From the NCBI GenBank assembly GCA_020072965.1, contig JAIQFY010000009.1, positions 9,649 through 73,648 on the forward strand: 64,000 bases of DNA, in the 5' to 3' direction. The position numbers and the translations under genes are program-made. The stretch is from Terriglobia bacterium (GTDB lineage: Bacteria > Acidobacteriota > Terriglobia > JAIQFV01). Below the pieces are notes generated by a model that searched no databases, was not told the DNA's origin, and saw only the letters and a list, made by a program, of their open reading frames with translations. Shown one piece after another: positions 1,954-63,514 of the stretch; position 1 is the first letter of the stretch, and each line of letters starts with the position of its first letter.

Positions 1954-4239
1954 ATGAAGTTACTCAAAGGGATTTCTCTTGCGATTATTTTGCTCGGACC
2001 GGCCTCAGTCTTCTATTTTTCCCAGGAAGCCGAGGATCGGACACTTCTCTCCTGGCCGATCGTTCAGAAGATTGTGGACGAAGCCTCCGGGGACCGTGCT
2101 ATGCATACCCTTCTCGAAATTGCCCCATACCCCAGGCACCGCAGCAAAGAAGAGTATGAAAACAAATTCGCAGAGAGCGCTTACATTGAGCGAAAGGTTA
2201 GGGAATCCGGACTCGACGCAGTTTCCGTGGAGCGCTTTTCACCGGGAGGAGGCCCGGGGGGTGGAAGAGGAGACGGTGGAAACACACAGGCGCCCGCAAA
2301 TCCGTTTGCGGGGAAAGCATGGGAAGGTTCGACAGGCCAGCTCTGGATGGTGGAGCCCCGCCCTCATAAACTCCTCGACTATGCGGACGTTCCAACCATG
2401 CTCTGTGCGAACAGTGAAAATGGGGACTGGACAGCAGAGCTAATCGACGTTGGGGACGGGTCTCGCCCTGAAGATTACAAGGAAAAGGATATCAAAGGAA
2501 AAATCGTTCTCGGATCGGCCGGCCCCGGCGTGCTTCAGCGTATGGCGGTGTTTGAGCGGGATGCGATCGGGGTGATTTCGTACAATTCCTTGCGGCCGGA
2601 GTATGATGTCCAGCAGTCACTCTGGGAAAGCATTCAGCCCCAGCCTCCCAATCAACCCAGGTATGCGGGGAAGAAAGGAGGATTCGGGTTCAAGCTCAAT
2701 GCTGAGATGGGACACGGGCTGCGAACCCTGCTGGATCGAGGTACAAGAGTAAAGCTTCGGGCCGTCGTGCAGGCGGATTGGTATCCCAACACCATGGAAA
2801 CGGTGTTTGCCCGGATCGCAGGGGACGGATCGAGCGATCAGGAGATCATTCTCTCTGCACATCTCTACGAAGGCTACTTGAAACAAGGCGCCAACGATGA
2901 TGCCAGTGGCAGCGCTGCCATCCTCGAAGTGGCGCGAACACTGAACACTTTGATCCACAGTGGACAACTCCCCCGGCCCCGTCGAACCATCAATTTTCTA
3001 TGGGTGCCGGAAATCAGCGGTACCACGGCCTGGCTCCGCGCCCATGAGGAGATCCGCAAGAAACTCATCAACGACATCAATATGGACATGGTGGGGGAAG
3101 GACTACAGAAGAACAACGCCTCTTTTGTGCTGAGCCGGACGCCTGATACGACACCCAATTATCTGAACGATGTCATGCAGAGTGTTTTCGAGTTCATTGG
3201 AAACACCAACCGCGAACGGGTCCGCTATCGGGCCAACGGCTATGCCATGTCGTACCCAATCATTTCCTCAGTCGGTTCCGTCGAACCCTTCCACTTCAAT
3301 ATCGATAAACATTACGGGGCCTCGGACCATATCATTTACCTCAATAATGGAATCCCGGCTACGATGATGGGCGTGTGGCCGGACATGTGGTACCACTCCT
3401 CCGGCGATACTCCCGATAAGGCGGATCCCACTCAAATGAGACGCGCCGTGGTCCTCAGTGCCATGGGAGCTTACATCGTCGCTTCGGCGGACGATGCCGG
3501 GGCAGCCCGGATTGGCGCTGAGTCTCTGGCGAGAGGGGACGCCCGGATCGGCGACGCTCTTCGGAAGGGACTTGCTTATCTCGCCGATTGGAATTCAGAT
3601 CTGCTTCCCTCCGCCTACAAAGAAGCCATCAATACGGTCCGCCACCAGGGAAAGATCGAAAAAGGAACGATCGAGTCCTTGAAGATTCTGATGCCCCCTT
3701 CGATGACCGACATTGACAAGGGGAAAACCGTCGAACCGTTCCTTTCCCTCATCGATGAGAGAACCCGGGTGGCCGAGAAGGAGATCATGGAGTTTTATGT
3801 TGTCCGAACCAAACGGACTCCACCGGAGCTCACATTGACTGCGGAAGAGGCCAAGGCAGCGCGGTTGATCCCCGAGCGAACCGGAGGCCAGGGCGGGTTC
3901 GGAGGATTTGGAGGCGGGATCGCAAGGCTACTCGAGCAACAACCCGAAGCCGATCGTAAGGCCCTCGAGGAGGCGTTGAGAAAGGTTCCCCAGCACATGA
4001 CCGCGGAACTCAATGTGATGCTCACCCGAAACGGAAACAAGAATGATCCCCGCAAGTATTCGGTCCTGGATATCCGCGACTTTCTCTCGGGAGAATTTGA
4101 ACCGATCACCCTGGCTGACATGGTGACGTATTTCAATGCCCAGGAAAAACTCAAGGCGATCAAATTAATGGAAAGGGCGGAGGAACCAACGGCCCCGCCC
4201 CAAGGTCAGAAGGCTAAAGGGAAGAAGGCCAGAGCATAA
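1954..4239 (+). CDS. secreted M28-family zinc metallopeptidase with PA-like domain
   Basis: GGAGG ribosome-binding site 8 nt upstream. N-terminal signal peptide MKLLKGISLAIILLGPASVF. M28 metal-ligand motifs ANDDASGSAAILEVARTL and HSSGDTPDKADP. Gly-rich GGQGGFGGFGGG linker near the C-terminus. Confidence 0.8.
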   Translation: MKLLKGISLAIILLGPASVFYFSQEAEDRTLLSWPIVQKIVDEASGDRAMHTLLEIAPYPRHRSKEEYENKFAESAYIERKVRESGLDAVSVERFSPGGGPGGGRGDGGNTQAPANPFAGKAWEGSTGQLWMVEPRPHKLLDYADVPTMLCANSENGDWTAELIDVGDGSRPEDYKEKDIKGKIVLGSAGPGVLQRMAVFERDAIGVISYNSLRPEYDVQQSLWESIQPQPPNQPRYAGKKGGFGFKLNAEMGHGLRTLLDRGTRVKLRAVVQADWYPNTMETVFARIAGDGSSDQEIILSAHLYEGYLKQGANDDASGSAAILEVARTLNTLIHSGQLPRPRRTINFLWVPEISGTTAWLRAHEEIRKKLINDINMDMVGEGLQKNNASFVLSRTPDTTPNYLNDVMQSVFEFIGNTNRERVRYRANGYAMSYPIISSVGSVEPFHFNIDKHYGASDHIIYLNNGIPATMMGVWPDMWYHSSGDTPDKADPTQMRRAVVLSAMGAYIVASADDAGAARIGAESLARGDARIGDALRKGLAYLADWNSDLLPSAYKEAINTVRHQGKIEKGTIESLKILMPPSMTDIDKGKTVEPFLSLIDERTRVAEKEIMEFYVVRTKRTPPELTLTAEEAKAARLIPERTGGQGGFGGFGGGIARLLEQQPEADRKALEEALRKVPQHMTAELNVMLTRNGNKNDPRKYSVLDIRDFLSGEFEPITLADMVTYFNAQEKLKAIKLMERAEEPTAPPQGQKAKGKKARA

Positions 4240-4342: not shown

Positions 4343-4373
4343 GGGGGGCACCCGCCGCGGCGGGTGCCCCTAC
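4343..4373. repeat. REP-like perfect palindrome (GGGGCACCCGCCGCGGCGGGTGCCCC), family copy 1; a second hairpin GGGCGCACagccGTGCGCCC lies at 4298-4317
   Basis: Read directly from sequence. Lies between the convergent gene ends at 4239 and 4400. The same core recurs at 10559-10576 and 17444-17475. Confidence 0.6.
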
Positions 4374-9412: not shown

Positions 9413-10393
9413 TTATCGCTTAAATGGCAAATGATCCAAATCCACGTTCCCGCCGGACAGAATAATTCCGATCCTCTTGTCCGCAAATCCCGCAGCCTTT
9501 TTGAAGATCGCCGCCGCGACCGCCACGGCGCCGGATGGTTCGACAATGATCTTCATCCGCTCCCAAATGTGACGCATGGCTTCGATGATCTCATCCTCGC
9601 TGACAGTGACGATGTCGTCGACCAGTTTCTGGATAATCGGAAACGTTTTATCTCCGAGGGACGACCGGAGGCCATCCGCAACGGTCTGCGGATGAGCCTG
9701 TAAAATGATTTTTCCGGCTTGCTTCGATTGAAACGCATCGTCAGCGCCCTTGGGTTCGCATCCAATGATCCAGGTTTCCGGAGAAAGACCTTTCATGGCC
9801 AGCGCGGTCCCGCTGATCAATCCCCCACCACCCACGGGGGCCAACAACAGGTCCAACCCTTCTTCAACCTGCTCAATGAACTCCAGGGCGCAGGTTCCCT
9901 GCCCGGCAATAACGCGGTAATTATTGTAAGGATGGATGAGGACGGCGCCGGTTCTGGCCACGAGTTCATCCGTCGTCGACTCCCGCGCCTCCAGGGTGGG
10001 CTTGCAAAAGGTGATCTCACCTCCATAGTTGCGGATCGCTCCCACCTTCGGCGCAGGCGCATTCGAAGGGACCACGATGTACGCTTTAATCCCCCGAATT
10101 CTGGCCGCCATGGAAAGCGCGGCTCCATGATTGCCGGAGGAGTGAGTGACGACTCCTTTCGCCGCGTCCGTTTCATCCAGTGAGAGGACCGCATTGATGG
10201 CCCCGCGCGCCTTGAAGGCGCCCCCCTTCTGCAGGTTTTCGCATTTGAAGAAGACCTGGGCGCCGGCCATCTCGTTCATCGTCCGGCTCGTCATGACGGG
10301 CGTGCGATGGATGTGTGGCCGTATCCTCTCGAGCGCCTCGCGAATCGTCTCCAGGCCAGGTTGGGTTTCAGCGTTTATGGTTGGAGTTGTCAT
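9413..10393 (-). CDS. PLP-dependent threonine/serine dehydratase or serine-racemase-like enzyme (fold type II)
   Basis: FKCENLQKGGAFKARGAINAV lysine motif. Gly-rich loops VGGGGLISG and SGGNV. Sits between the large and medium XDH-family subunits. Confidence 0.8.
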   Translation of the reverse strand: MTTPTINAETQPGLETIREALERIRPHIHRTPVMTSRTMNEMAGAQVFFKCENLQKGGAFKARGAINAVLSLDETDAAKGVVTHSSGNHGAALSMAARIRGIKAYIVVPSNAPAPKVGAIRNYGGEITFCKPTLEARESTTDELVARTGAVLIHPYNNYRVIAGQGTCALEFIEQVEEGLDLLLAPVGGGGLISGTALAMKGLSPETWIIGCEPKGADDAFQSKQAGKIILQAHPQTVADGLRSSLGDKTFPIIQKLVDDIVTVSEDEIIEAMRHIWERMKIIVEPSGAVAVAAAIFKKAAGFADKRIGIILSGGNVDLDHLPFKR

Positions 10394-13955: not shown

Positions 13956-15371
13956 TCATAACCGAACATACTCGAATTCGAAGGGCTTGCCGCCGACGCC
14001 GCTCTTAGGGGGAGCAATCCAATTGGCAATCTTCCCCGGGTCGGTGACGGGTTTCATCAACTCGCGCACGTAAGCGCGGTCCTCTTGACCGGGCAGCCAG
14101 TGGGGGGCCTTCGCCTCATACTCTTCTTCCGAGATCAAGTTGCCCCCAAGATCGAAGTTATGGTTGGCGAATTCACCCTGATGGCGATGAAAACGGGTGG
14201 AGGGAAGGACCAACCTTGCGGAGATGCCTTCTTCCTCCAGCGCCTTGTTCCATCTTGCCAGACCGCGTTCGCAGTCTTTGACATATTCGCCACGCAGCAC
14301 TTCGTTCAACGCATTCCGGAGCGGAACCTCTTTCGTGGCAAGCTTTCCGTTCTCGATCACGGTCAGCGAATAGGTGGCGTCGCTGATCACGTGGTCCTCA
14401 TATTTCTTCTGTTCGAGATAGCGTCCTTTCAAGCCGGCCGAAAAGAAGTCCGCTGCGTTGGAAGAGATTTCTCCGCCGAAGAGGTCAAGTGAGTAGCTGT
14501 ACCAGAAATTGATGTAGCGCTGGATGATGGAGAGGGGGATGCCGTTGAGCGCCCTCACCTCGTCGTCGCCCTGATTCTTCGTCTGCTTCATCAGCTCCGC
14601 CGTCCGCTTCACAATGCGCTCCAGGCCTGACTCGCCCACAAACATGTGGTGCGCTTCTTCGGTCAGCATGAACTGGCAGGTGCGGGCCAGTGGCTCAAAA
14701 CCCGACTCCGCCAGGGACGCGAGCTGATACTTTCCGTCGCGGTCCGTGAACATGGTAAACGCGTAGAAGTTCAGCCAGTCATCACACGGCTGGTTGAAGG
14801 CGCCCAGGATCCGTGGCTTGTCGGTGTTGCCACTCCGGCGCTGGAGCAATTCTTCCGCTTCTTCACGGCCGTCGCGTCCGAAGTATTTTTGGAGGATGTA
14901 CACCATCGCCCACAAGTGTCGCCCCTCCTCAACATTCACCTGGAACAGGTTCCGCAAATCGTACATTGAAGGGCATGTGACACCCAGACGTCGTTGCTGC
15001 TCGACGGAGGCCGGCTCAGTATCGCCTTGGGTTACGACAATGCGCCGCAGCGCGTTGCGAAACTCCCCGGGGACTTCCTGGTACGCCGGATGGCCGCAAC
15101 CGTCTCCAAACCCGATGGTGGCGTTCGTCTTCGAAGGATTCAGGAAGATCCCCCAGCGATATTCCGGCATCTTGACATAACCGAAATGCGCCCAGCCTTC
15201 GGGTTCCACAGACACAGCGGTTCGAAGATAAACATCGTATCCCTGAAACCCCTCCGGCCCCATCTCGTTCCACCAGGACAGGAAATTCGGAAGCCATTTT
15301 TCCAGCGCGCGCTGAAGCTGGGGATCGTTGCTGAGATCGACATTGTTGGGAATTTTGTCAAATACGCTCAT
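13956..15371 (-). CDS. boxB: benzoyl-CoA 2,3-epoxidase (oxygenase) component B, diiron enzyme
   Basis: 471 aa. N-terminus MSVFDKIPNNVDLSNDPQLQRALEKWLPNFLSWWNEMGPEGFQGYDVYLRTAVSVEPEGWAHFGYVKM closely matches BoxB as I remember it. Two E-x-x-H diiron motifs: VEEGRHLW and TEEAHHMF. Confidence 0.85.
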   Translation of the reverse strand: MSVFDKIPNNVDLSNDPQLQRALEKWLPNFLSWWNEMGPEGFQGYDVYLRTAVSVEPEGWAHFGYVKMPEYRWGIFLNPSKTNATIGFGDGCGHPAYQEVPGEFRNALRRIVVTQGDTEPASVEQQRRLGVTCPSMYDLRNLFQVNVEEGRHLWAMVYILQKYFGRDGREEAEELLQRRSGNTDKPRILGAFNQPCDDWLNFYAFTMFTDRDGKYQLASLAESGFEPLARTCQFMLTEEAHHMFVGESGLERIVKRTAELMKQTKNQGDDEVRALNGIPLSIIQRYINFWYSYSLDLFGGEISSNAADFFSAGLKGRYLEQKKYEDHVISDATYSLTVIENGKLATKEVPLRNALNEVLRGEYVKDCERGLARWNKALEEEGISARLVLPSTRFHRHQGEFANHNFDLGGNLISEEEYEAKAPHWLPGQEDRAYVRELMKPVTDPGKIANWIAPPKSGVGGKPFEFEYVRL

Positions 15372-15442
15372 TGATGCTCCGTGTGAATCATTTCCTCTTG
15401 CCGGCGGCGTTTGAAGACTGCACGCGCCTTGCGTTCCGGCTC

Positions 15443-15552
15443 ACGAAGTCAGAGTTCAGAAGTCAAAAGTCGGAGGTCAGATATCAGAGATCGTGCTCCT
15501 TGCGCTCTTAAATCTGACTTCCGACTTCTGACTTCTGACTTCCGACCTCCTT
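15443..15552. repeat. imperfect ~45-nt-arm palindrome built from TCRRARG/GACTTCY heptamers, intercistronic between boxC and boxB
   Basis: Left arm GAAGTCAGAGTTCAGAAGTCAAAAGTCGGAGGTCAGAT. Right arm ATCTGACTTCCGACTTCTGACTTCTGACTTCCGACCTCC. Period 7, read from sequence. Confidence 0.6.
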
Positions 15553-15561
15553 TGAAAATCT

Positions 15562-17259
15562 TCATGTTCTTCGAAAATCGAATTTCGCTTTTGTCGGTTT
15601 CCCGTAATTCGTCAGCCCTCCATGTTCGCCAACGGCGTTGGGCCGCTGGAAGATCCAATTCTGCCACGCGGTGAGACGTCCATAGATCTTGGTCTCGGTG
15701 GTTTCCGGGCCGGCAAATCGCAACGAGGCTTCCATGCCGGTCAGGGCGTCGGGCGACAGCGAAGTGCGCTCTTCGATAGCAACGCGAATCTCATCGTCCC
15801 AGTCCAGGCCGTCGGGTGCCAGAGTCACGAGTCCACCTTCGAGCGCGGCGTCGGCAGAGAACCGAGCGGGAGGCTTCAACGCAGCCTCGATCCGGGCGTT
15901 ATCGTTGAGGAAACGGGATTCCAGGCGCGAAAGGCCATTCGACATGGGCAGCGCGCCGGCGTTCATCGAAGTAGTAGCGATTTTAATCGCTTGATCCGGG
16001 TCGTTTCGCATGTAGGTTCGATCCGAAGCGAGGGCAAGTTCCAACAGATTCCCCGCGAAGCAACTCCCCTCTTCAATTAAAGCAAAGAAACTCTTCGCGG
16101 TATGATCCATCCGGCGCAGGACGCGGCCCATGTGGAGAATTATCTCCCGCACCAATCCATGGTCCCGGTGGGATGAGAGCATTTCATCGATCCGATGGAT
16201 GGCGTCAATTTCGCCGTGAGTGCGGACAATCACCAGGCCGATTTCCGGCTCGTTGAAGCGCAAGTGTAGCAGCGCATCATCCAGCTCACGATAAGCCGCC
16301 AGGGCCCAGAACCGGTCTCCCCATTCCTGGATCCGCACGGCGGAATCGGGCTGGGGATCAGCGGGAGCACGCAGCGTCAGATTGGCGATCCGCGCCTTCC
16401 GGTTGAGCTGAAGGGAAACGTATCTGTATTCCCGGCCGCTCTCAGTAATCTGAACCTCAAGGGGATGCAGCTTGATTCCCTTGGGGGGCGTCGATCGAGA
16501 GGGCTCGTCGCTGGGACTGGATTGAATTTCAGCCAGTAGATGATCGATCCGGGAGGTCACCGCTTGGTCAAATTTGCTAGTCGGGAACGTGTCATCTATC
16601 AGGCCCCACTCTTTCGCACGCTTTCCTTTGATCCCTTCCGCGAGGGTGCAGAAAACATCAGCGCGGTCCCGGCGCACCTTGCGCTTATCCACCAGCCGGG
16701 TCAATCCTCCGGTCCCCGGCAGGACCCCCAGCAGAGGCACTTCCGGAAGCGAAACCGCCGAGCTGCCGTCGTCCACCAGGTAAATTGCGTCACACGCCAG
16801 CGCCAGCTCATATCCCCCACCCGCGCACGTCCCGTTGAGCGCGGCGACAAAACGGATGCCCGAAAACCGGGAGGCCTCTTCCATGGCGCAACGGGTCTCG
16901 TTGGTGAACTTGCAGAAATTGACCTTGAAGGGATGGGAAGAACTTCCGAGCATGTAGATATTGGCGCCGGCGCAAAACATGCGCGGCTTCAGGCTCTTCA
17001 CGACCACGACGCGCACCTCGGGGTGTTCGAAGCGGATGCGGTTAAGGGCATCGGCCAGCTCGATGTCGACGCCGAGGTCATAGGAATTCAATTTCAGCTT
17101 GTACCCCTCGCGCAGGGGCGAATCTTCCTGAACATCCAGTCCCAGCGTGGCGACTTCACCTTCCACGACCAAATTCCAGTGCCGGTACTGTCCCGGAGTA
17201 GCTTGAAACTCCACCGGCCGCTCGGCCGTCTGGGGTGGCGGGGTCACTGGAATCGGCAT
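15562..17259 (-). CDS. boxC: 2,3-epoxybenzoyl-CoA dihydrolase (benzoyl-CoA-dihydrodiol lyase), crotonase superfamily
   Basis: 565 aa. YRHWNLVVEGEVATLGLDVQEDSPLREGYKLKLNSYDLGVDIELADALNRIRFEHPEVRVVVV matches the BoxC N-terminal block. Two crotonase-like halves. Confidence 0.85.
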   Translation of the reverse strand: MPIPVTPPPQTAERPVEFQATPGQYRHWNLVVEGEVATLGLDVQEDSPLREGYKLKLNSYDLGVDIELADALNRIRFEHPEVRVVVVKSLKPRMFCAGANIYMLGSSSHPFKVNFCKFTNETRCAMEEASRFSGIRFVAALNGTCAGGGYELALACDAIYLVDDGSSAVSLPEVPLLGVLPGTGGLTRLVDKRKVRRDRADVFCTLAEGIKGKRAKEWGLIDDTFPTSKFDQAVTSRIDHLLAEIQSSPSDEPSRSTPPKGIKLHPLEVQITESGREYRYVSLQLNRKARIANLTLRAPADPQPDSAVRIQEWGDRFWALAAYRELDDALLHLRFNEPEIGLVIVRTHGEIDAIHRIDEMLSSHRDHGLVREIILHMGRVLRRMDHTAKSFFALIEEGSCFAGNLLELALASDRTYMRNDPDQAIKIATTSMNAGALPMSNGLSRLESRFLNDNARIEAALKPPARFSADAALEGGLVTLAPDGLDWDDEIRVAIEERTSLSPDALTGMEASLRFAGPETTETKIYGRLTAWQNWIFQRPNAVGEHGGLTNYGKPTKAKFDFRRT

Positions 17260-17322: not shown

Positions 17323-17340
17323 TGCAATATAATGCATGCG
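17323..17340. promoter_or_regulatory. candidate BoxR/BzdR operator: TGCA-N6-TGCA (TGCAATATAATGCATGCG) in the boxC/boxR divergent region
   Basis: TGCA repeats spaced by 6 nt. The embedded ATATAAT is a -10-like hexamer. BzdR-type regulators are reported to bind TGCA-containing repeats; function here is inferred. Confidence 0.35.
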
Positions 17341-17443: not shown

Positions 17444-17475
17444 GTAGGGGCGCCCGCCGCGGCGGGCGCCCCTAC
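17444..17475. repeat. REP-like perfect 32-nt palindrome GTAGGGGCGCCCGCCGCGGCGGGCGCCCCTAC, family copy 3
   Basis: Read from sequence. Located in the boxC-boxR divergent promoter region. Confidence 0.6.
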
Positions 17476-18907: not shown

Positions 18908-19259
18908 GTCGAATGTCGGTGCCTGACCCGAATGGCGCTTAGACCCGAATGGCGCTTAGTTAAGAAATTGAGATGGAGATTGATCCGCTTCCCTGAAGGG
19001 GAAGTCTTCAATAGCCCAGGGTTGGCCGCCTTGCGGCCTACCCTGGGTGGGGATCGCCCGAAGAGAAGAAGGAACCCTGAAGGGGTTCCTTCCCCACGAG
19101 GATCTGGGTTCGATCCAGCCAAAATATGATCAAAGACTCCTCCGGCCCCCCCTGCGCGGTGACTGGGACTGTCATAAACCTGTTCTCTGGGATGGGGCTA
19201 GATCCGTTTTACCATTCTCTTAACTTAGCGCCATTCGGAGTCAGGCGCCGACATTCGAT
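18908..19259. mobile_element. MITE-like ~350-bp element with ~35-bp terminal inverted repeats and a highly structured interior
   Basis: Left end GTCGAATGTCGGTGCCTGACCCGAATGGCGCTTAG, followed by a duplicated ACCCGAATGGCGCTTAG. Right end CTAAGCGCCATTCGGAGTCAGGCGCCGACATTCGAT, its reverse complement. Interior hairpins: CTTCCCtgaaGGGGAAG, CCCAGGGT...ACCCTGGG, GGAACCCtgaaGGGGTTCC. Solo copies of the terminal-repeat core lie at 18826-18848 and 19949-19971. Confidence 0.45.
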
Positions 19260-19717: not shown

Positions 19718-19998
19718 AGTCTTCTTGTCGCCGACTAACTAATACAGGGAAAGATGAATTCTTTTCGGGTCAGATAACGACCTTAAATGATCCAACAAAT
19801 TTTTGATTGCCCCTTCAGGGCAAACCACGAATGAATGATGATCATCCCTCCCAGGGCGGCGCCCTGGGCTTTTGAAGGCCGCCCTTTCAGGGCAGGCGAA
19901 TAGGTATTGGCATCTCTGACACGGACAAGATCCGATAAAACATGGGGGGGCAGGCACCGACATTCCACGACTTCAGTCGTGCCTGCTCGGAACACCCC

Positions 19999-25533: not shown

Positions 25534-25969
25534 ATTAGGATGGATTTTGCAATTAAGAGAGTAAACAAAGCATCCCGCAGCGAGCGGGATACCTGTCCGC
25601 CCTCACGGGGATGGTTTGGAATTTCGGTTGAAGAATTCAAAAAATAGTGGCTGGCTTAGACCTGATTTCCGAATTTGCCAGCCATTCTCTTGTTCAGTTC
25701 GTTTGCATGGGGAAAGGTTGAAGTGATTCTGCCTTGGCACAAAGGGTGATGCCGCCCGCCAAGGCGGGCTGCGTGGTTGAAGGCTGGTGCCCTCCTGGGG
25801 CTCGCGCCCCAGGCTATTTCATTTCGCCGCTGTGCGGCTTTAAGTATGGATCCAACTCCGGAACGCGGGTTGAAATCCGAACACGCTTCGAACCCTTGAC
25901 TTCTCACCCTATGCCAATAATTAGCTGTCCCCCGTTGACGTGGTCTATACCTTGGCGCCGATTCCATTC

Positions 25970-45393: not shown

Positions 45394-45529
45394 GTCAGCC
45401 GGCGTCGGTCTTCACACCCTTCATTTCCAAGAATGTCAACCGCTCCGGAATGCCGGAGTGATTCTTATTTTTACCAGGATTCCTAAGTTGGCCCCTGTTT
45501 TAAGCCGCGCAGCGGCGAAATAAAGTAAC

Positions 45530-46262
45530 CTGGGGCGTGAGCCTCAGGACCGGGCGACAAGAATAGAATGACAGTCCGCCTTGGCGGACGAAAGAGCGCG
45601 ACAGGAGCGTGGATGCCAACCTAAATCAGTGTTACAATTCAGTGGCGTGATTCCCCCCAGAAGGTCTCAGTAAACCCACATCCCCCGAACAGAGGTCCTC
45701 ACATGGCCACGAGTTATACATCCCTGCGTTTTCACGTTCTCTTCAGTACCAAGAATCGTATGAGATGGATTACAAAAGAATGGGAAGAGGAGCCCTACTC
45801 CTACCTCGCGGGCATCCTTCGGGAAGAACGAGGCCGGCTTCTGAGGGGAACGGAATGGACGACCATGTTCATCTTCTCCTCGTGCTCAGGGCTGACCAGT
45901 CCCTCACCGAGATCATGCGGATCTTGAAATCAAATTCCTCGAGGTGGATTCATGAAAAATCGAGGGAGCGCTGGAGGTTTGAATGGCAACGTGGATATTT
46001 CGGGGTCACAGTGACCAAGTCCCAGGTGGAGCGAGTCCGGCAATACATCAAAAATCAAAAGCAGCACCACCAGCGAGTCAGTTTTCAGGAGGAATTTTTG
46101 AGGTTGCTCAAGGCACATCAAATTGAATTCGACGAACGTTATGTTTGGAAATAATGATCCGGGCATAACTGTCGTCCGCCAAGGCGGACTCAATCTTCTC
46201 CTATTGCACCGAAACCTGAGGCTCACGCCTCAGGCTACGAATAGGCCGTCCGCACAAGGCGG
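45530..46262. mobile_element. IS200/IS605-type (RAYT-like) element: tnpA flanked by inverted hairpin-containing ends
   Basis: Upstream GCGTGAGCCTCAGG...AGTCCGCCTTGGCGGACGAAAG. Downstream GTCGTCCGCCAAGGCGGACT...CCTGAGGCTCACGCC, its reverse complement. An extra GTCCGCACAAGGCGGAC hairpin lies at 46246. Confidence 0.5.
45703..46154 (+). pseudogene. tnpA: IS200/IS605-family Y1 (HuH) transposase TnpA, interrupted by an apparent frameshift near 45840-45860
   Basis: Frame 1 gives SLRFHVLFSTKNRMRWITKEWEEEPYSYLAGILREERG. Frame 2 gives GMDDHVHLLLVLRADQSLTEIMRILKSNSSRW...WQRGYFGVTVTKSQVERVRQYIKNQ, carrying the HuH and catalytic Tyr motifs. Together they cover a complete TnpA. Confidence 0.6.
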
Positions 46263-48288: not shown

Positions 48289-48515
48289 CTCGCGTCGCCT
48301 CAATGGCACGAGCAACCGGAAATGGTGTTGTCCCGCAAGATCTTCGGAGACCCGTTTAACCGCAAAGATCGCAATGGCGGCCCAAAGATCGCATAAATGC
48401 CTGTGCCTTATTGCGGAGGCATTCTTTTTGCGCTCTTGGCGCCTACTTAGCGAACTCTGCGGTTCGTCTTTAATCCGAATTCCGCACTCCGAAATCCGCA
48501 ATTGATGACCCGCAT

Positions 48516-50976: not shown

Positions 50977-51834
50977 TTACTCATTAATCTCTGATCTCTT
51001 CCCCCTCAGAAGTGTCACCCGGGCCGCGCCGGAGATAGGATTAAGGTCGACCAGGAGATCGGAATCAAAGACCTTGCGAAGCCGCTCTTCGGTCAGCACC
51101 TCAGCGGGCGGTCCAACCGCCAGGGGCACACCGGCATTCAAAAGCAGAATGTGATCCGCGAATTCGGCGGCGAGGTTGAGTTCGTGGGTGACCATGAGGA
51201 CGGCCATGCCGTGCTCCCGCGCCAACCGTTCAACCAGCTCAAGTAGCCCCATCTGAAACGCCACGTCGAGGTTGAGGGTCGGCTCATCCAGCAGGAGCAA
51301 TCCTGGGGTTTGCGCCAGGGCACGGGCCAAAATGACCCGCTGGCGCTCACCGCCCGAAAGTTCGTTCATCCATCGCCGCTCGAAGACCGACGCCTCCGTC
51401 ATCTCGAGAGACCGGCGCACGATGGTCAGGTCTTCGTGCGACGCCAGCTGCAATCCATCGAGGAAGGGATGGCGTGCCAGCAGGCAGTATTCAAGGACGG
51501 TCATGGGAAAATGCAACGAGCTTTCCTGGGCCACCACTGCAATTTGCCTCGCCCGCTCGCGATGCCTCATTCGATGGATGTCCACCCCGTTCCATCGGGC
51601 CCATCCGGAGGTGGGCCGGAGCGTCCCGCTCACCAGCTTGAGCAAGGTCGACTTCCCGGAGCCGTTCGGGCCCACAATTGCCGTTACTTCGGAAGTGCGC
51701 ATGGAAAAGGAAACGGGGTGAAGTTGAAATTTGCCCACTTTCACACCCACATCGTGCAGTTCGAGGCATGAAACGCCGGCAGCGGGCGGTTGCGCATCCA
51801 TCCGGGGTTGTGAATGGGAAGAGATCACTGTCAA
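50977..51834 (-). CDS. ABC transporter ATP-binding protein (FecE/BtuD/HmuV type)
   Basis: Walker A GPNGSGKST. Signature LSGGERQRV. Walker B LLLDEP. Confidence 0.85.
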   Translation of the reverse strand: MTVISSHSQPRMDAQPPAAGVSCLELHDVGVKVGKFQLHPVSFSMRTSEVTAIVGPNGSGKSTLLKLVSGTLRPTSGWARWNGVDIHRMRHRERARQIAVVAQESSLHFPMTVLEYCLLARHPFLDGLQLASHEDLTIVRRSLEMTEASVFERRWMNELSGGERQRVILARALAQTPGLLLLDEPTLNLDVAFQMGLLELVERLAREHGMAVLMVTHELNLAAEFADHILLLNAGVPLAVGPPAEVLTEERLRKVFDSDLLVDLNPISGAARVTLLRGKRSEINE

Positions 51835-52847
51835 TCCTCCGCCCGATCGCGTCTTAACAGGTAAATGAACACCGGGGCTCCCGCCAGCGCTGTAATGGCC
51901 CCGACCGGAAGTTCTGTCGGTGCGACGATGGTTCGTGCAATCAGATCGGCCAGCAAAGTCAGCATGGCCCCCAGGATGGCCGTCGATGGCAGCAGCAGTC
52001 GATAATCATTGCCGAAAAGCATTCGTGCGATGTGCGGAACGATTAACCCCACAAAACCGATGGAGCCGCTGAGGGAGACCGCCAGGCCGGTCAGCAGGGC
52101 CGCCAATACAAAGATCGCCCGCTTCACCCATTCGACAGGCACCCCCAGGTGGGCGGCTTCCTGCTCGCCGATGAGCATGACATTGAGATCGCCTGCAAAG
52201 CGGTAGATCAAGACTACCGTCGTGAGCGTTACCAGCGAAATCCATTTCATCGAGGGGACGTGGACACTGTTGAAGTTACCGGTGAGCCAGAAAGTCGTCT
52301 CGCGCAACTGGCCCCCGCTGAGAAAGGGTTGAATGAAAATGATGACGGATGAAAAGAATGACGCCACGATGATCCCTGCGAGAATCAAGGTGTGCGCGGA
52401 GACTCTTCCCTTCCGGCTTCCCAGGGTGTAAACGAGCACAATGGTGATCAAACCCCCGACAAATGCGGCGGCCGGAGTAGGAATTCCCCATTGACCCGCA
52501 AATGCGATCGATAGAATCGCCGCCAGCGCGGCACCACTGGAAACACCCAGGATATGGGGGTCGGCCAGGGGGTTTCTCAAGAGGGCTTGAAAACTGGCGC
52601 CCGCCACCGCCAGGGCCATCCCGACCAGCATGGCGAGATAAATCCTCGGCATCCGCAGGCTGAAGAGTATCGTGGAAGTCTCCGAGGCCGGGTACTCGCC
52701 GGGATGTGTCAATCGGGTCGAAACACTTTCGAGCACGGTGACAAGCGGGATGTGTGTGCTGCCGATGGACAACGCAACCCCCATCATCCCTGCCAAGAGC
52801 AAGAGCAGCAGAATCAAACGCACCGCCATTTTTTTTCGAGTCAGCAT
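51831..52847 (-). CDS. FecCD-family ABC transporter permease (BtuC-like)
   Basis: 338 aa, about 9 TM helices. Stop/start overlap with the ATPase gene. Confidence 0.85.
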   Translation of the reverse strand: MLTRKKMAVRLILLLLLLAGMMGVALSIGSTHIPLVTVLESVSTRLTHPGEYPASETSTILFSLRMPRIYLAMLVGMALAVAGASFQALLRNPLADPHILGVSSGAALAAILSIAFAGQWGIPTPAAAFVGGLITIVLVYTLGSRKGRVSAHTLILAGIIVASFFSSVIIFIQPFLSGGQLRETTFWLTGNFNSVHVPSMKWISLVTLTTVVLIYRFAGDLNVMLIGEQEAAHLGVPVEWVKRAIFVLAALLTGLAVSLSGSIGFVGLIVPHIARMLFGNDYRLLLPSTAILGAMLTLLADLIARTIVAPTELPVGAITALAGAPVFIYLLRRDRAED

Positions 52848-52958: not shown

Positions 52959-53996
52959 TTAATTCGTCTTCTGATGAAAATATTTTGCAAACTGTTCCAA
53001 GGCGTCAAAGAGCCGCGGGCCCGGGCGGCTGGCATTGTCCTCGACTTTGAAGATCCGGTTCGTCTGTACCGCCGTCGTGTGGCTCCAGCCCGGCCAGGAT
53101 CTCATTTGTTCGATCGCGGGAGAGTTTCCGTTATTTTTCGGGAGAAGGATGATTTCCGGGTCGCGCCTTACAATTTCCTCCAGCGACAATTGCGCCCAGT
53201 CCTGTTTTAGATCGCCGCTGATCGATTCGCCCCCCGCAAGCGAAATCAGATCTGTAATATAGGCCCCGCGTCCCGGCACGCTGATCGGGTTGTACCAAAC
53301 CAGGTAGAGCACCCGAGGCCGGGGCCGTCCCGCCACTTGATTCACGACCGCGTCCCGGCGTTCCCGAAGTGAACGAACGAGGGCGTCCGCTTGGGCCTGG
53401 TTTCCGGTCAACGCGCCGACATCCTCCAAGGCTCGGAAGACATCGTCGACAGACGTCGTGTGCACCCCGTAGAGAGGAATGCCAAAGTGCATCAGCTCGT
53501 CCGCCACAGCAATCTTGTTAATCTCAGGCGTTCCAATCACCAGGTCCGGATGCAGAGAGACGATCACTTCGATGTTGGGATCGATCAATCCCCCCACGCT
53601 GGGCTTCTGCCGGACCTCCGGGGGGTAATCACAATAATCGCTGCGGCCCACCACTCTCTGAGCCAAACCGAGGGCATAGAGAAGTTCGGTGACACTCGGG
53701 GCGATGGAAATGATGCGCTGGGGATGCTCGGGAACCATCACCGTCCGGCCGGTTTCGTCGATGACTTTGCGGTTGGCGGCGGGAGCGAGTATTGGAAAAA
53801 TCAACAGTAACCAGAGTGGGAGGAGAAGTTGCCAGTTGCCAGTGGCCAGTTGCCTAAGTGCAGTTGTCAGTTGTCGGTTCTCAGTTCTCAGTTCCAGGTA
53901 GTCAGTTGCCAGTGGCCAGAAAGACCAGGAGCGGGACTTCGAAGGAATACTGTCAACTCTTGAGCTTCTCATTCTGATGATATTCAATGGAGACAT
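52959..53996 (-). CDS. periplasmic substrate-binding protein of the BtuF/FecB type; true start uncertain because the N-terminal 50 codons are encoded by a heptamer repeat
   Basis: Binding-protein blocks IISIAPSVTELLYALGL and VIVSLHPDL. Signal-like LLLPLWLLLIFPILAPAA follows the repeat-encoded WPLATDYLELRTENRQLTTALRQLATGNWQ. Confidence 0.7.
   Translation of the reverse strand: MSPLNIIRMRSSRVDSIPSKSRSWSFWPLATDYLELRTENRQLTTALRQLATGNWQLLLPLWLLLIFPILAPAANRKVIDETGRTVMVPEHPQRIISIAPSVTELLYALGLAQRVVGRSDYCDYPPEVRQKPSVGGLIDPNIEVIVSLHPDLVIGTPEINKIAVADELMHFGIPLYGVHTTSVDDVFRALEDVGALTGNQAQADALVRSLRERRDAVVNQVAGRPRPRVLYLVWYNPISVPGRGAYITDLISLAGGESISGDLKQDWAQLSLEEIVRRDPEIILLPKNNGNSPAIEQMRSWPGWSHTTAVQTNRIFKVEDNASRPGPRLFDALEQFAKYFHQKTN
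53828..53919. repeat. CAGTTSY heptamer-repeat block with internal direct repeat CAGTTGCCAGTGGCCAG (x2)
   Basis: Read from sequence. A related GCTGAT repeat lies at 54041-54082. Confidence 0.55.
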
Positions 53997-54294
53997 GGCA
54001 CATCCAAGAATAAAGGAGCAAGCCTTTCAGCCGGGACTTGCTGAAAGCTGATTGCTGATAGCTGATCGCTGACAGCTGTTCACTTCAAAAAAATACCCCA
54101 TGCATCTTCGTTGGAAAACGCACGGGGCAATAAACTTTGTCCACGGGCCCTTTGACGCGAAGAGCACAACTTTGGAGTCGTGAACCTGAAGGAACAAAGC
54201 CGTTGAGCATCGCTATGGATGCCAGTCCTTCGGCTTCAATCCCTGGGTTTCGCTGGTTCCAGGCAGGTCTCCTGACTTGACCACTCTCGGTTGC

Positions 54295-54445
54295 GTTCTC
54301 GCCTTCCCATCCCGCTGAAGCGGGGCAGTGGTTTTGAACCCGGAAGCGTGGTCTCACAGTGGCGCGACCGTCGCCGACTTTCACGGCGTTCCCTTTTTGA
54401 CTCCGACCTTTCGGAGTGCCTGAAACCGCTGAGAAAGATCACAGT
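54295..54445 (-). ncRNA. cobalamin (B12) riboswitch leading the btuF-permease-ATPase-TonB-receptor operon
   Basis: Minus-strand RNA contains GGGAAcgccGTGaAAgTCggcgacgGTCGCGCCACTGTGA. This matches the GGGAAnnnGGTGnAAnTCC...CCCGCnACTGT core. Further 3' it contains CCACTG...GGGAAGGC (B12 box and 3' element). Position is appropriate for a B12-uptake operon. Confidence 0.5.
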
Positions 54446-63223: not shown

Positions 63224-63230
63224 GAAGAAG

Positions 63231-63494
63231 TTGTCAGTTCTCAGTTGCCAGTTGCCAGAAGGCAGTTGTCAGTTCTCAGTTCTCAGTTGTCAGTTGAAGT
63301 ACTCCCGCGCTCCGTGACTCTCCAATCTGGCTGCATACGCAACTCACATCCAGTCTGGCGCGACATCGAAAGAAAGGAATTGAGTGGTCAGTTGTGATTG
63401 AGGTCCACTTCCGTTCTCTGACCTCTGGCTATTCTTTCAAACCACTGAAGTCTCTCTCTTCACTGATAACTGAGAACTGAGAACTGACAACTGC
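63231..63494. repeat. CAGTTSY heptamer-repeat arms in inverted orientation flanking ~160 bp
   Basis: Left arm 63231-63297 (GTTGTCAGTTCTCAGTTGCCAGTTGCCAG...CAGTTCTCAGTTCTCAGTTGTCAGTTG). Right arm 63461-63494 (CACTGATAACTGAGAACTGAGAACTGACAACTGC). Confidence 0.55.
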
Positions 63495-63514
63495 TCTTAA
63501 ACAAGGAGCCCAAT

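Follow-up and report, generated by a model that had tools for sequence, protein, structure and literature searches.

The cyanobacterial STRR heptamers were reportedly described from Calothrix PCC 7601 by Mazel et al. in 1990, and to our knowledge no function has been demonstrated so far for any heptanucleotide repeat. Among the long simple repeats of many bacteria, those with a 7-nt unit are the most abundant, and later authors, citing Mrazek 2007, report that slippage of the polymerase has been given as their origin (PMC4679880, PMC4692102). The TAACTGA direct repeats of marine Beggiatoaceae, Cyanobacteria and Bacteroidetes point toward start codons (MacGregor 2015, PMC4679880); nearly all of them are direct, in 2-6 copies within a few nucleotides of the start codon, and one inverted case has been described (PMC4679880). 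The GGGAATC arrays of Xanthomonas are sometimes inverted repeats and differ in length between species (Rehm et al. 2015, PMC4692102), and these arrays and the GGGGA(C/T)T repeats of Nostoc were studied as formers of G-quadruplexes (PMC4692102). A literature search found no description of inverted, fixed-polarity arrays with a TCAG core as a class, and no paper about palindromes of heptamers in Acidobacteria or about the polarity of such palindromes.

Effects attributed to REP elements include stabilisation of upstream mRNA and an influence on the termination of translation or transcription. Hairpins recognised by RNase III lie between the cistrons of phage T7, and the Correia elements of Neisseria are cleaved by RNase III. 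The REP/BIME elements of enterobacteria are imperfect intergenic palindromes that are often located just past stop codons and inside operons (background in PMC3733652).

The palindrome between boxC and boxB

The window, which is the whole 64,000-nucleotide stretch of DNA that was analysed, encodes on its minus strand BoxC at 15562-17259 (profile match to TIGR03222, 787 bits) and BoxB at 13956-15371 (TIGR03225, 749 bits), so that the assignment of these two genes in the initial annotation is borne out by the profile matches. The boxB and boxC genes are benzoate-degradation genes, and BoxB is an essential partner enzyme. The BoxB protein is 100% identical to one recorded as 'MAG: Acidobacteriia bacterium', and the window also contains three Acido-Lenti-1 RNAs (described below), both in line with its origin from an uncultured member of the Acidobacteriia/Terriglobia. 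A gene for a BoxR/BzdR-type regulator, with HTH and shikimate-kinase-like domains, is located upstream of boxC in the divergent orientation, and genes resembling those of 4-hydroxybenzoyl-CoA reductase come after the boxB/boxC pair. The intercistronic spacer (15372-15561, minus strand) is 190 nt long, between the BoxC stop codon at 15562-15564 and the BoxB start codon at 15369-15371, and its last 30 nt (15372-15401) include a GGAG Shine-Dalgarno sequence at 15377-15380. A promoter scan of the spacer found no sigma-70-type promoter.

A repeat search of the spacer found an inverted repeat with arms at 15445-15489 and 15505-15549, each 45 nt long and 82% complementary, with 15 nt between them, together with further arm registers shifted by 7 nt, and Tandem Repeats Finder reported five copies of a period of 7 at 15516-15550. 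On the plus strand, the left arm is made of the units TCAGAGT, TCAGAAG, TCAAAAG, TCGGAGG and TCAGATA, and the right arm of the units TCTGACT and TCCGACT. In the sense of the mRNA (minus strand), the 5' arm (15505-15549) is a series of heptamers with a TCRG core (GGAGGTC, GGAAGTC, AGAAGTC, AGAAGTC, GGAAGTC, then AGAT...); the centre (15490-15504, 15 nt) is folded by RNA prediction as a larger unpaired apical region with a small apical stem; and the 3' arm (15445-15489) is a series of heptamers with a CTGA core (CTGATAT, CTGACCT, CCGACTT, TTGACTT, CTGAACT, CTGACTT), in which TGA stop codons can be read in all three frames. The predicted fold of the spacer has an energy of -79.2 kcal/mol on the mRNA strand (z = -6.0, with none of 200 shuffled sequences as good) and -73.9 kcal/mol on the opposite strand (z = -5.4), and the predicted stem begins 12 nt past the boxC stop codon and finishes 73 nt before the boxB start codon. 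The repeat search and the fold thus agree with what had been noticed from the sequence, a 190-bp spacer holding an imperfect inverted repeat with heptamer arms of about 45 nt. A second, smaller stem (GCCGG ... CCGGC) at 15400-15440 (minus strand) is located downstream of the main hairpin; its ends are kept in the related locus L008 (described below) and its interior varies. Over the heptamer hairpin region, no Rfam family reached its gathering threshold, and at E values up to 10 there were only chance-level miRNA and snoRNA matches, far under threshold.

The boxC-boxB element resembles the heptanucleotide long simple repeats and STRR sequences in its intergenic tandem 7-nt units, the dominance of period 7 and its 7-nt length steps between relatives, and differs from them in that its arrays form inverted pairs of fixed polarity with a recurrent TCAG core, found in Acidobacteriota and many other phyla. 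Its head-to-tail 7-nt units exceed chance, occupy a non-coding site and change as whole units between relatives. Like the TAACTGA repeats, the 3' arm consists of intergenic heptamers with a CTGA core and stops in three frames that face forward toward the downstream start codon (PMC4679880); unlike them, the CTGA array has a TCAG array upstream as its partner, is located 73 nt from the start codon and has another variable triplet (units CTGACTT and CTGATAT). Assignment of the array to the TAACTGA type was rejected, since nothing beyond a CTGA core and a forward orientation is common to both. The Xanthomonas unit GGGAATC can be rotated to TCGGGAA, which fits the TCRGNNN pattern of the class described below; however, the units of the window are not prone to form G-quadruplexes, and the palindrome is the rule in this class but the exception among GGGAATC and GGGGA(C/T)T repeats (PMC4692102). 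The element is, like REP/BIME, an imperfect intergenic palindrome just past a stop codon and inside a presumed operon, but it has neither a GTAG/CGTC head nor a conserved family sequence, and its arms are much longer and internally periodic. The T7 RNase III hairpins and the Correia elements resemble the class in their long, almost perfect stems separating the cistrons of a common transcript; they show no similarity to it in sequence, and cleavage by RNase III, as in T7 and Correia, would be a candidate property of the class.

Other heptamer arrays in the window

Six tandem arrays of period 7 were found in the window, compared to one array (of period 4) for all other periods from 4 to 12, and three successive TCRGNNN units occur 13 times compared to an expectation of 0.13. 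The heptamer arrays of the window have a common YCRG core, and their units differ among loci. A second palindrome, in the spacer between the ChrB_C and DUF1529 genes, is formed by a 5' array of CAGTTGT, CAGTTCT and CAGTTGC units at 63229-63296 (plus strand) and an inverted 3' array of ACTGATA, ACTGAGA and ACTGACA units at 63462-63493 (plus strand), with the next start codon 21 nt further on; these arrays are predicted to pair across 165 nt (z = -5.3). A solo array of 13 units of the CAGTTGC type, with no inverted partner, is located at 53827-53919 (plus strand), and another solo array, of GCTGATA, GCTGATC and GCTGACA units, at 54040-54078 (plus strand), between a cobalamin riboswitch (54245-54438, minus strand; RF00174, 99 bits) and the downstream ORF. 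Pairing of these two solo arrays was considered and rejected, the region of 53827-53919 folding no better than shuffled sequences (z = 0.48). A short array of period 7/14 (TCCGAAT, TCCGCAC, TCCGAAA, TCCGCAA) is located between convergent ORFs at 48474-48502 (plus strand). The further heptamer blocks that had been placed at 53828-53919 and 63231-63494 were recovered at 53827-53919 and as the pair 63229-63296 and 63462-63493.

In the minus-strand ORF at 52959-53996, downstream of the cobalamin riboswitch, the 13-unit array separates the sole in-frame ATG, at 53996, from a segment resembling a signal peptide (LLLPLWLLLIFPILAPAA), and no in-frame ATG, GTG or TTG comes after the array. Should the array be translated, gain or loss of a single unit would put this ORF out of frame, which is the classical layout of phase variation.

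A widespread class of heptamer palindromes

The boxC-boxB element is one member of a pan-bacterial class of heptamer palindromes that is especially common in Acidobacteriota. The architecture of the class is 5'-(TCAGNNN)n-loop-(NNNCTGA)n-3', for which the scan pattern was TCAGNNNTCRGNNNTCRG-N(3-33)-CYGANNNCYGANNNCYGA. This TCAG-first pattern has at least 120 matches in species-representative genomes, compared to approximately 4 by chance (calculated for equal base frequencies). Among the species-representative matches listed, 43 of 120 are from Acidobacteriota (counted from record titles) and the rest are from more than 15 phyla, the other matches listed being from Gemmatimonadota, Planctomycetota, Chloroflexota, Bacteroidota, Nitrospirota, Verrucomicrobiota, several proteobacterial classes, Firmicutes, CPR and others. 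Isolates in culture that carry such palindromes include Geothrix alkalitolerans SG263 (L275), Cerasicoccus maritimus NBRC 105382 (L302) and Desulfotruncus alcoholivorax DSM 16058 (L365). Viral contigs contain at least 120 matches to five successive TCRGNNN units and at least 120 to the TCAG-first palindrome; the mirror image, in which CTGA comes first, was found in only 23 stretches by a complete scan of the viral contigs. With the same palindrome in so many phyla and in viruses, the initial annotation's description of the class as genus-specific no longer holds.

The polarity of the class is fixed. Among loci that were picked for direct arrays only, 168 arrays were solo, 45 had an inverted partner downstream and none had one upstream (45:0). 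Outside the matches that had served for selection, the period was 7 in 105 of 133 arrays at genome loci and 276 of 319 at viral loci. TCAG/CTGA was the commonest tetramer of the consensus unit (9/14, 31/105 and 138/276 arrays, compared to an expected frequency of about 5.5%). A keto-rich or G-rich 5' arm was considered as the true rule of polarity and rejected as a partial tendency (more G than C in 82 arms versus 29, and in 55 versus 39). The rare CTGA-first palindromes (L240-L262) have strongly G-rich left arms, with units such as GGCTGAA, GGACTGA and GTGCTGA, and suggest that placing the G-rich arm first is a second, weaker rule. The orientation of solo arrays with respect to start codons was discarded as a measure because the stop-to-stop limits of the ORFs are set by the TGA codons of the arrays themselves, which makes the distance an artefact.

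Hairpins of the class have a median stem of 24 bp and a median loop of 9 nt. In tandem gene pairs, the median distance from the upstream stop codon to the hairpin is 5 nt at genome loci and 18 nt at viral loci, and approximately 40 nt separate the end of the hairpin from the next start codon. A tract of at least five T within the 9 nt past the stem was found in 7-12% of hairpins, and no conserved flanking motif was found beside the hairpins of the class. The intergenic contexts of the palindromes (75 tandem, 22 convergent and 16 divergent, by a home-made ORF/GC3 heuristic that assigns these classes approximately) are in roughly ordinary proportions. Comparison of sense and antisense stability in 148 class hairpins revealed no bias (24 versus 26 and 39 versus 40; Wilcoxon p = 0.64 and 0.21), and six orthologous boxC-boxB spacers gave no consistent signal of a strand bias in G-U pairs, only L008 being biased.

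Phages provide a distinctive setting for the class. On the phage contig L181, heptamer hairpins are located between the genes for the head-tail adaptor, the head-closure protein and the tail terminator. These genes form a module that is usually co-transcribed, and hairpins between phage structural genes are compatible with read-through transcription. On L181 (1863-4955) and three other phage contigs (L186, L104 and L187, which is IMGVR_UViG_3300045936_000120), nearly every short gap between structural genes contains a heptamer palindrome, all palindromes of a contig being of one unit type; on L181, every palindrome is followed by a conserved GGAGCGCAGCG(A/C)C(C/G)ATG. Another phage contig has about 14 heptamer palindromes in 34 kb.

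Conservation and evolution of the arms

Loci with boxC and boxB were taken over a graded range of BoxB identity to the window, the spacer of which is 190 nt long with 5 units per arm. In the sister species (locus L005, GCA_020073085.1; BoxB 95% identical), the spacer is 180 nt long and the unit is AGAAGCC/GGCTTCT; in L008 (91%), it is 169 nt long with 4 units and 32 uninterrupted base pairs. The spacer of L012 (85%) is 129 nt long with a long hairpin that is not made of heptamers (-54.9 kcal/mol), that of L011 (84%) is 99 nt long with weak GGTGTCA arrays, and that of L013 (81%) is 74 nt long with no clear hairpin. L014 (78%), also with a spacer of 74 nt, has a TTGGTCA/GTGGTCA palindrome, the first unit of which we take to be that of STRR2, and a second palindrome downstream of boxB. 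In L015 and L016 of the Blastocatellia (76%), the long spacer is replaced by a gene for a NADAR-domain protein (9525-9977) between boxC and boxB. Of 62 loci at a greater distance, four contain period-7 arrays in the spacer that precedes boxB; three of these arrays, at the acidobacterial loci L392 (TTTGGTC), L393 and L403 (GGGGAGT), are palindromes with other units, and several more of the 62 loci have long hairpins not made of heptamers. A metagenome scan with BoxB found, among the matches listed, relatives only at 77% identity or below. A search for exact matches to the protein encoded at 51831-52847 of the window returned no record.

The spacers of the window and L008 align from end to end, with one indel of 7 nt in the 5' arm, one of 14 nt in the 3' arm and no others, which argues for vertical descent. 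Their identity is 90% in the 5' arm, 85% in the 3' arm, 77% (20/26) in the loop segment (approximately 15485-15511 of the window) and 93% in the last 30 nt, compared to 54-61% at the four-fold sites of boxB and boxC. Thus, the spacer has changed more slowly than near-neutral sites between the window and L008, the identity of the arms being partly inflated by the ease with which repeats align. All five non-Watson-Crick pairs of the L008 hairpin are G-U pairs on the mRNA strand, with a predicted energy of -62.2 kcal/mol on this strand compared to -46.6 kcal/mol on the other; in the hairpin of the window this bias is small (three G-U versus two A-C).

In L005, GTC has become GCC in every unit of the 5' arm, and new GGC units of the 3' arm pair with these, leaving the old GAC units unpaired. 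The ancestral boxC-boxB spacer of L005 has been largely replaced: the spacer region (3099-3298, approximately 200 bp) is an 86%-identical inverted copy of 1132-1324, upstream of boxC, so that boxC is flanked in this species by two inverted copies of one heptamer-palindrome element. In the ChrB_C-DUF1529 spacer, both inverted arrays are kept in two relatives at a similar distance, and the arms have changed together from CAGTTCT/AGAACTG to the CAGTGGG/CCACTG type. From these alignments, the element can be seen to evolve, apparently by slippage, through gain and loss of whole 7-nt units with the arms staying complementary, and the position and pairing of the predicted hairpin persist in related species. 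The idea of a class of tandem-heptamer palindromes is upheld in this respect, with several members in the window and changes of whole heptamers (7 and 14 nt) between species.

Possible role of the palindrome and alternative explanations

The preferred reading, to which a probability of about 0.5 is assigned, is that the element is a slippage-evolving palindrome that acts as a REP-like stem-loop in the intercistronic mRNA and is neither a terminator nor a phase-variation switch. The two inverted heptamer arrays with TCAG/CTGA cores form a palindrome inside a boxC-boxB transcription unit (both genes being presumably co-transcribed), and the transcript would fold into the predicted stem-loop of approximately 40 bp, 12 nt past the boxC stop codon. 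The stem-loop may block 3'-to-5' exonucleases, serve as a processing site for a double-strand-specific enzyme of the RNase III type, or both, and might be an obstacle to ribosomes terminating at boxC as well. Through any of these effects, the expression of BoxC relative to BoxB would be determined while transcription continued.

Such an RNA stem-loop role is plausible for the modelled hairpin. Retention of a hairpin at the same spacer in L008, L005, L014, weakly in L011 and in a non-heptamer form in L012 counts in its favour, as do the concerted changes of the arms in L005 and at the ChrB_C-DUF1529 locus, and the palindromic form keeps its position and arm pairing where synonymous sites have diverged by approximately 40%. 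The stability of the predicted fold, the high identity between the window and L008 spacers relative to four-fold sites, the scarcity of U-tracts and the short distance of class hairpins from the upstream stop codon also speak for it. Other observations count against it: selection on one RNA strand should favour G-U pairs on that strand, and the class has no sense/antisense bias; a pure 3'-end element should avoid divergent regions, and the intergenic contexts are in ordinary proportions; L013 has no clear hairpin, and the ancestral spacer of L005 has been largely replaced. Because the class has no strand-specific G-U signature, two other explanations, a neutral origin and a DNA-level function, stay serious rivals.

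The neutral explanation has an appreciable chance of being correct, although it is considered unlikely. The arrays would grow by replication slippage, a partner arm would be made and kept matching by intrastrand template switching (quasipalindrome correction), and the spacer would tolerate the element without selected function. Slippage, to which the abundance of heptanucleotide repeats has been ascribed (Mrazek 2007 as cited in PMC4679880 and PMC4692102), would account for the indels in 7-nt steps; the 148 hairpins without a stability bias and the ordinary mix of intergenic contexts are as a neutral element would have them; and the location next to a stop codon could merely reflect the absence of any required sequence there. 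This account has to contend with a spacer whose rate of change, in the non-repetitive loop (20/26) and the 3' flank too, is two to three times lower than that of four-fold sites, with a position that stays the same in different lineages in spite of turnover of the unit sequence, with co-variation that persists between arms 165-200 nt apart, and with the 45:0 polarity and recurrent TCAG core, which are beyond what slippage alone predicts. If the element is neutral, it is a clean natural system for the study of slippage and palindrome homogenisation.

A DNA-level element, double-stranded or cruciform, is quite improbable, for example an array of phased sites to which gyrase, a nucleoid protein or a replication factor binds, of the kind proposed for REP/BIME. 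The features of the class that are symmetric between strands (the polarity is the same on both, and there is no sense-strand G-U bias) would be expected of such an element, as would the presence of palindromes in divergent as well as tandem regions, and three heptamers span 21 bp, which would be about two helical turns. Against this, the class has no known binding protein and no conserved flanking motif was found, the G-U pairs of L008 favour the mRNA strand, and locations just past stop codons and between phage genes of a usually co-transcribed kind fit an RNA role better.

Insertion into the spacer of a small mobile element akin to MITEs or REPINs is very improbable. The inverted copy of 1132-1324 that constitutes the L005 spacer (3099-3298, 86% identity) could have arisen in this way, and the palindromes of one genome or contig often have one common unit type; but the spacers of the window and L008 are homologous from end to end with only 7- and 14-nt indels, no target-site duplication or flanking direct repeat is visible around the hairpin, neither a GTAG/CTAC nor a CGTC/GACG tetranucleotide is present at either hairpin end, the 64-kb window contains no second GAAGTCR array, and the units differ between loci of the window. 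Termination or attenuation of transcription downstream of boxC by an intrinsic terminator, as the high stability of the hairpin and its place right behind a stop codon could suggest, is also highly improbable: the mRNA strand has no U-tract after the stem, where the sequence is CGUGAGCCGG, a terminator scan of 15300-15650 was empty, U-tracts are rare throughout the class, the same hairpins are located between phage structural genes, and the gene downstream encodes BoxB, the essential partner enzyme, with no sigma-70-like promoter detected between. Phase variation by slippage, which had been put forward as a candidate role, is scarcely credible at boxC-boxB even with heptamer tracts being prone to slippage, unit numbers differing between species and a short-read contig breaking inside one array, for the tract is intercistronic between complete ORFs, located neither in coding sequence nor between promoter elements (no sigma-70-type promoter being found in the spacer), gain or loss of a unit would merely shift the register of a periodic stem, and there is no length variant of the spacer, which is identical within each set of near-clonal assemblies (99.99-100%) from three populations (four of the window population, and four and three of two sister species, 11 in all), or of 63224-63514 in three further near-clonal assemblies, the near-clonality giving this last observation little weight.

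To return to the stem-loop reading, if hairpins of this class set the stability or processing of mRNA segments, they would amount to a so far overlooked level of operon tuning in soil phyla without classical REP biology. A broader proposal, which must be called decidedly unlikely as it stands, is that palindromes of TCAG-core heptamers are pan-bacterial, polarity-constrained functional elements, located after stop codons and read by conserved machinery (a ribonuclease, a terminating or initiating ribosome, or a DNA-level factor), and would play in Acidobacteriota, Gemmatimonadota, Planctomycetota and their phages the part that REP elements have elsewhere, the 45:0 order and the tetramer core reflecting recognition and not mutation bias. 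The location of the class inside operons just after stop codons, those of phage structural operons included, and the recurrence of its polarity and TCAG core across phyla make the question of function testable. Heptamer palindromes also matter for annotation and assembly, in that short-read contigs break at them: a contig of Logan SRR15677233 (L466) ends 34 nt into the heptamer array at 63229, which implies that such arrays break short-read assemblies.

Other repeats and motifs in the window

Three Acido-Lenti-1 motifs (RF01687) are located at 25794-25839 (plus strand), 45503-45548 (minus strand) and 19850-19894 (plus strand); they were considered as kin of the heptamer class and ruled out, being small, unrelated elements of two hairpins. 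Upstream of boxC and next to the divergent gene for the BoxR/BzdR-type regulator, the sequence TGCATTATATTGCA at approximately 17324-17337 (minus strand) resembles the TGCA-N6-TGCA operators of BzdR/BoxR regulators. A GC-rich palindrome with a perfect 15-bp stem (GTAGGGGCGCCCGCC-GC-GGCGGGCGCCCCTAC) is located at 17444-17475, between the regulator gene and boxC, and a second copy near 4343-4373 differs by a compensatory change from G-C to A-T. With GTAG/CTAC ends in the first copy and a CTAC end in the second, these look like a GTAG-tagged family of the REP type that is distinct from the heptamer palindromes. A perfect tandem duplication of 17 nt (GACCCGAATGGCGCTTA, 2.1 copies) is located at 18925-18959 of the window.
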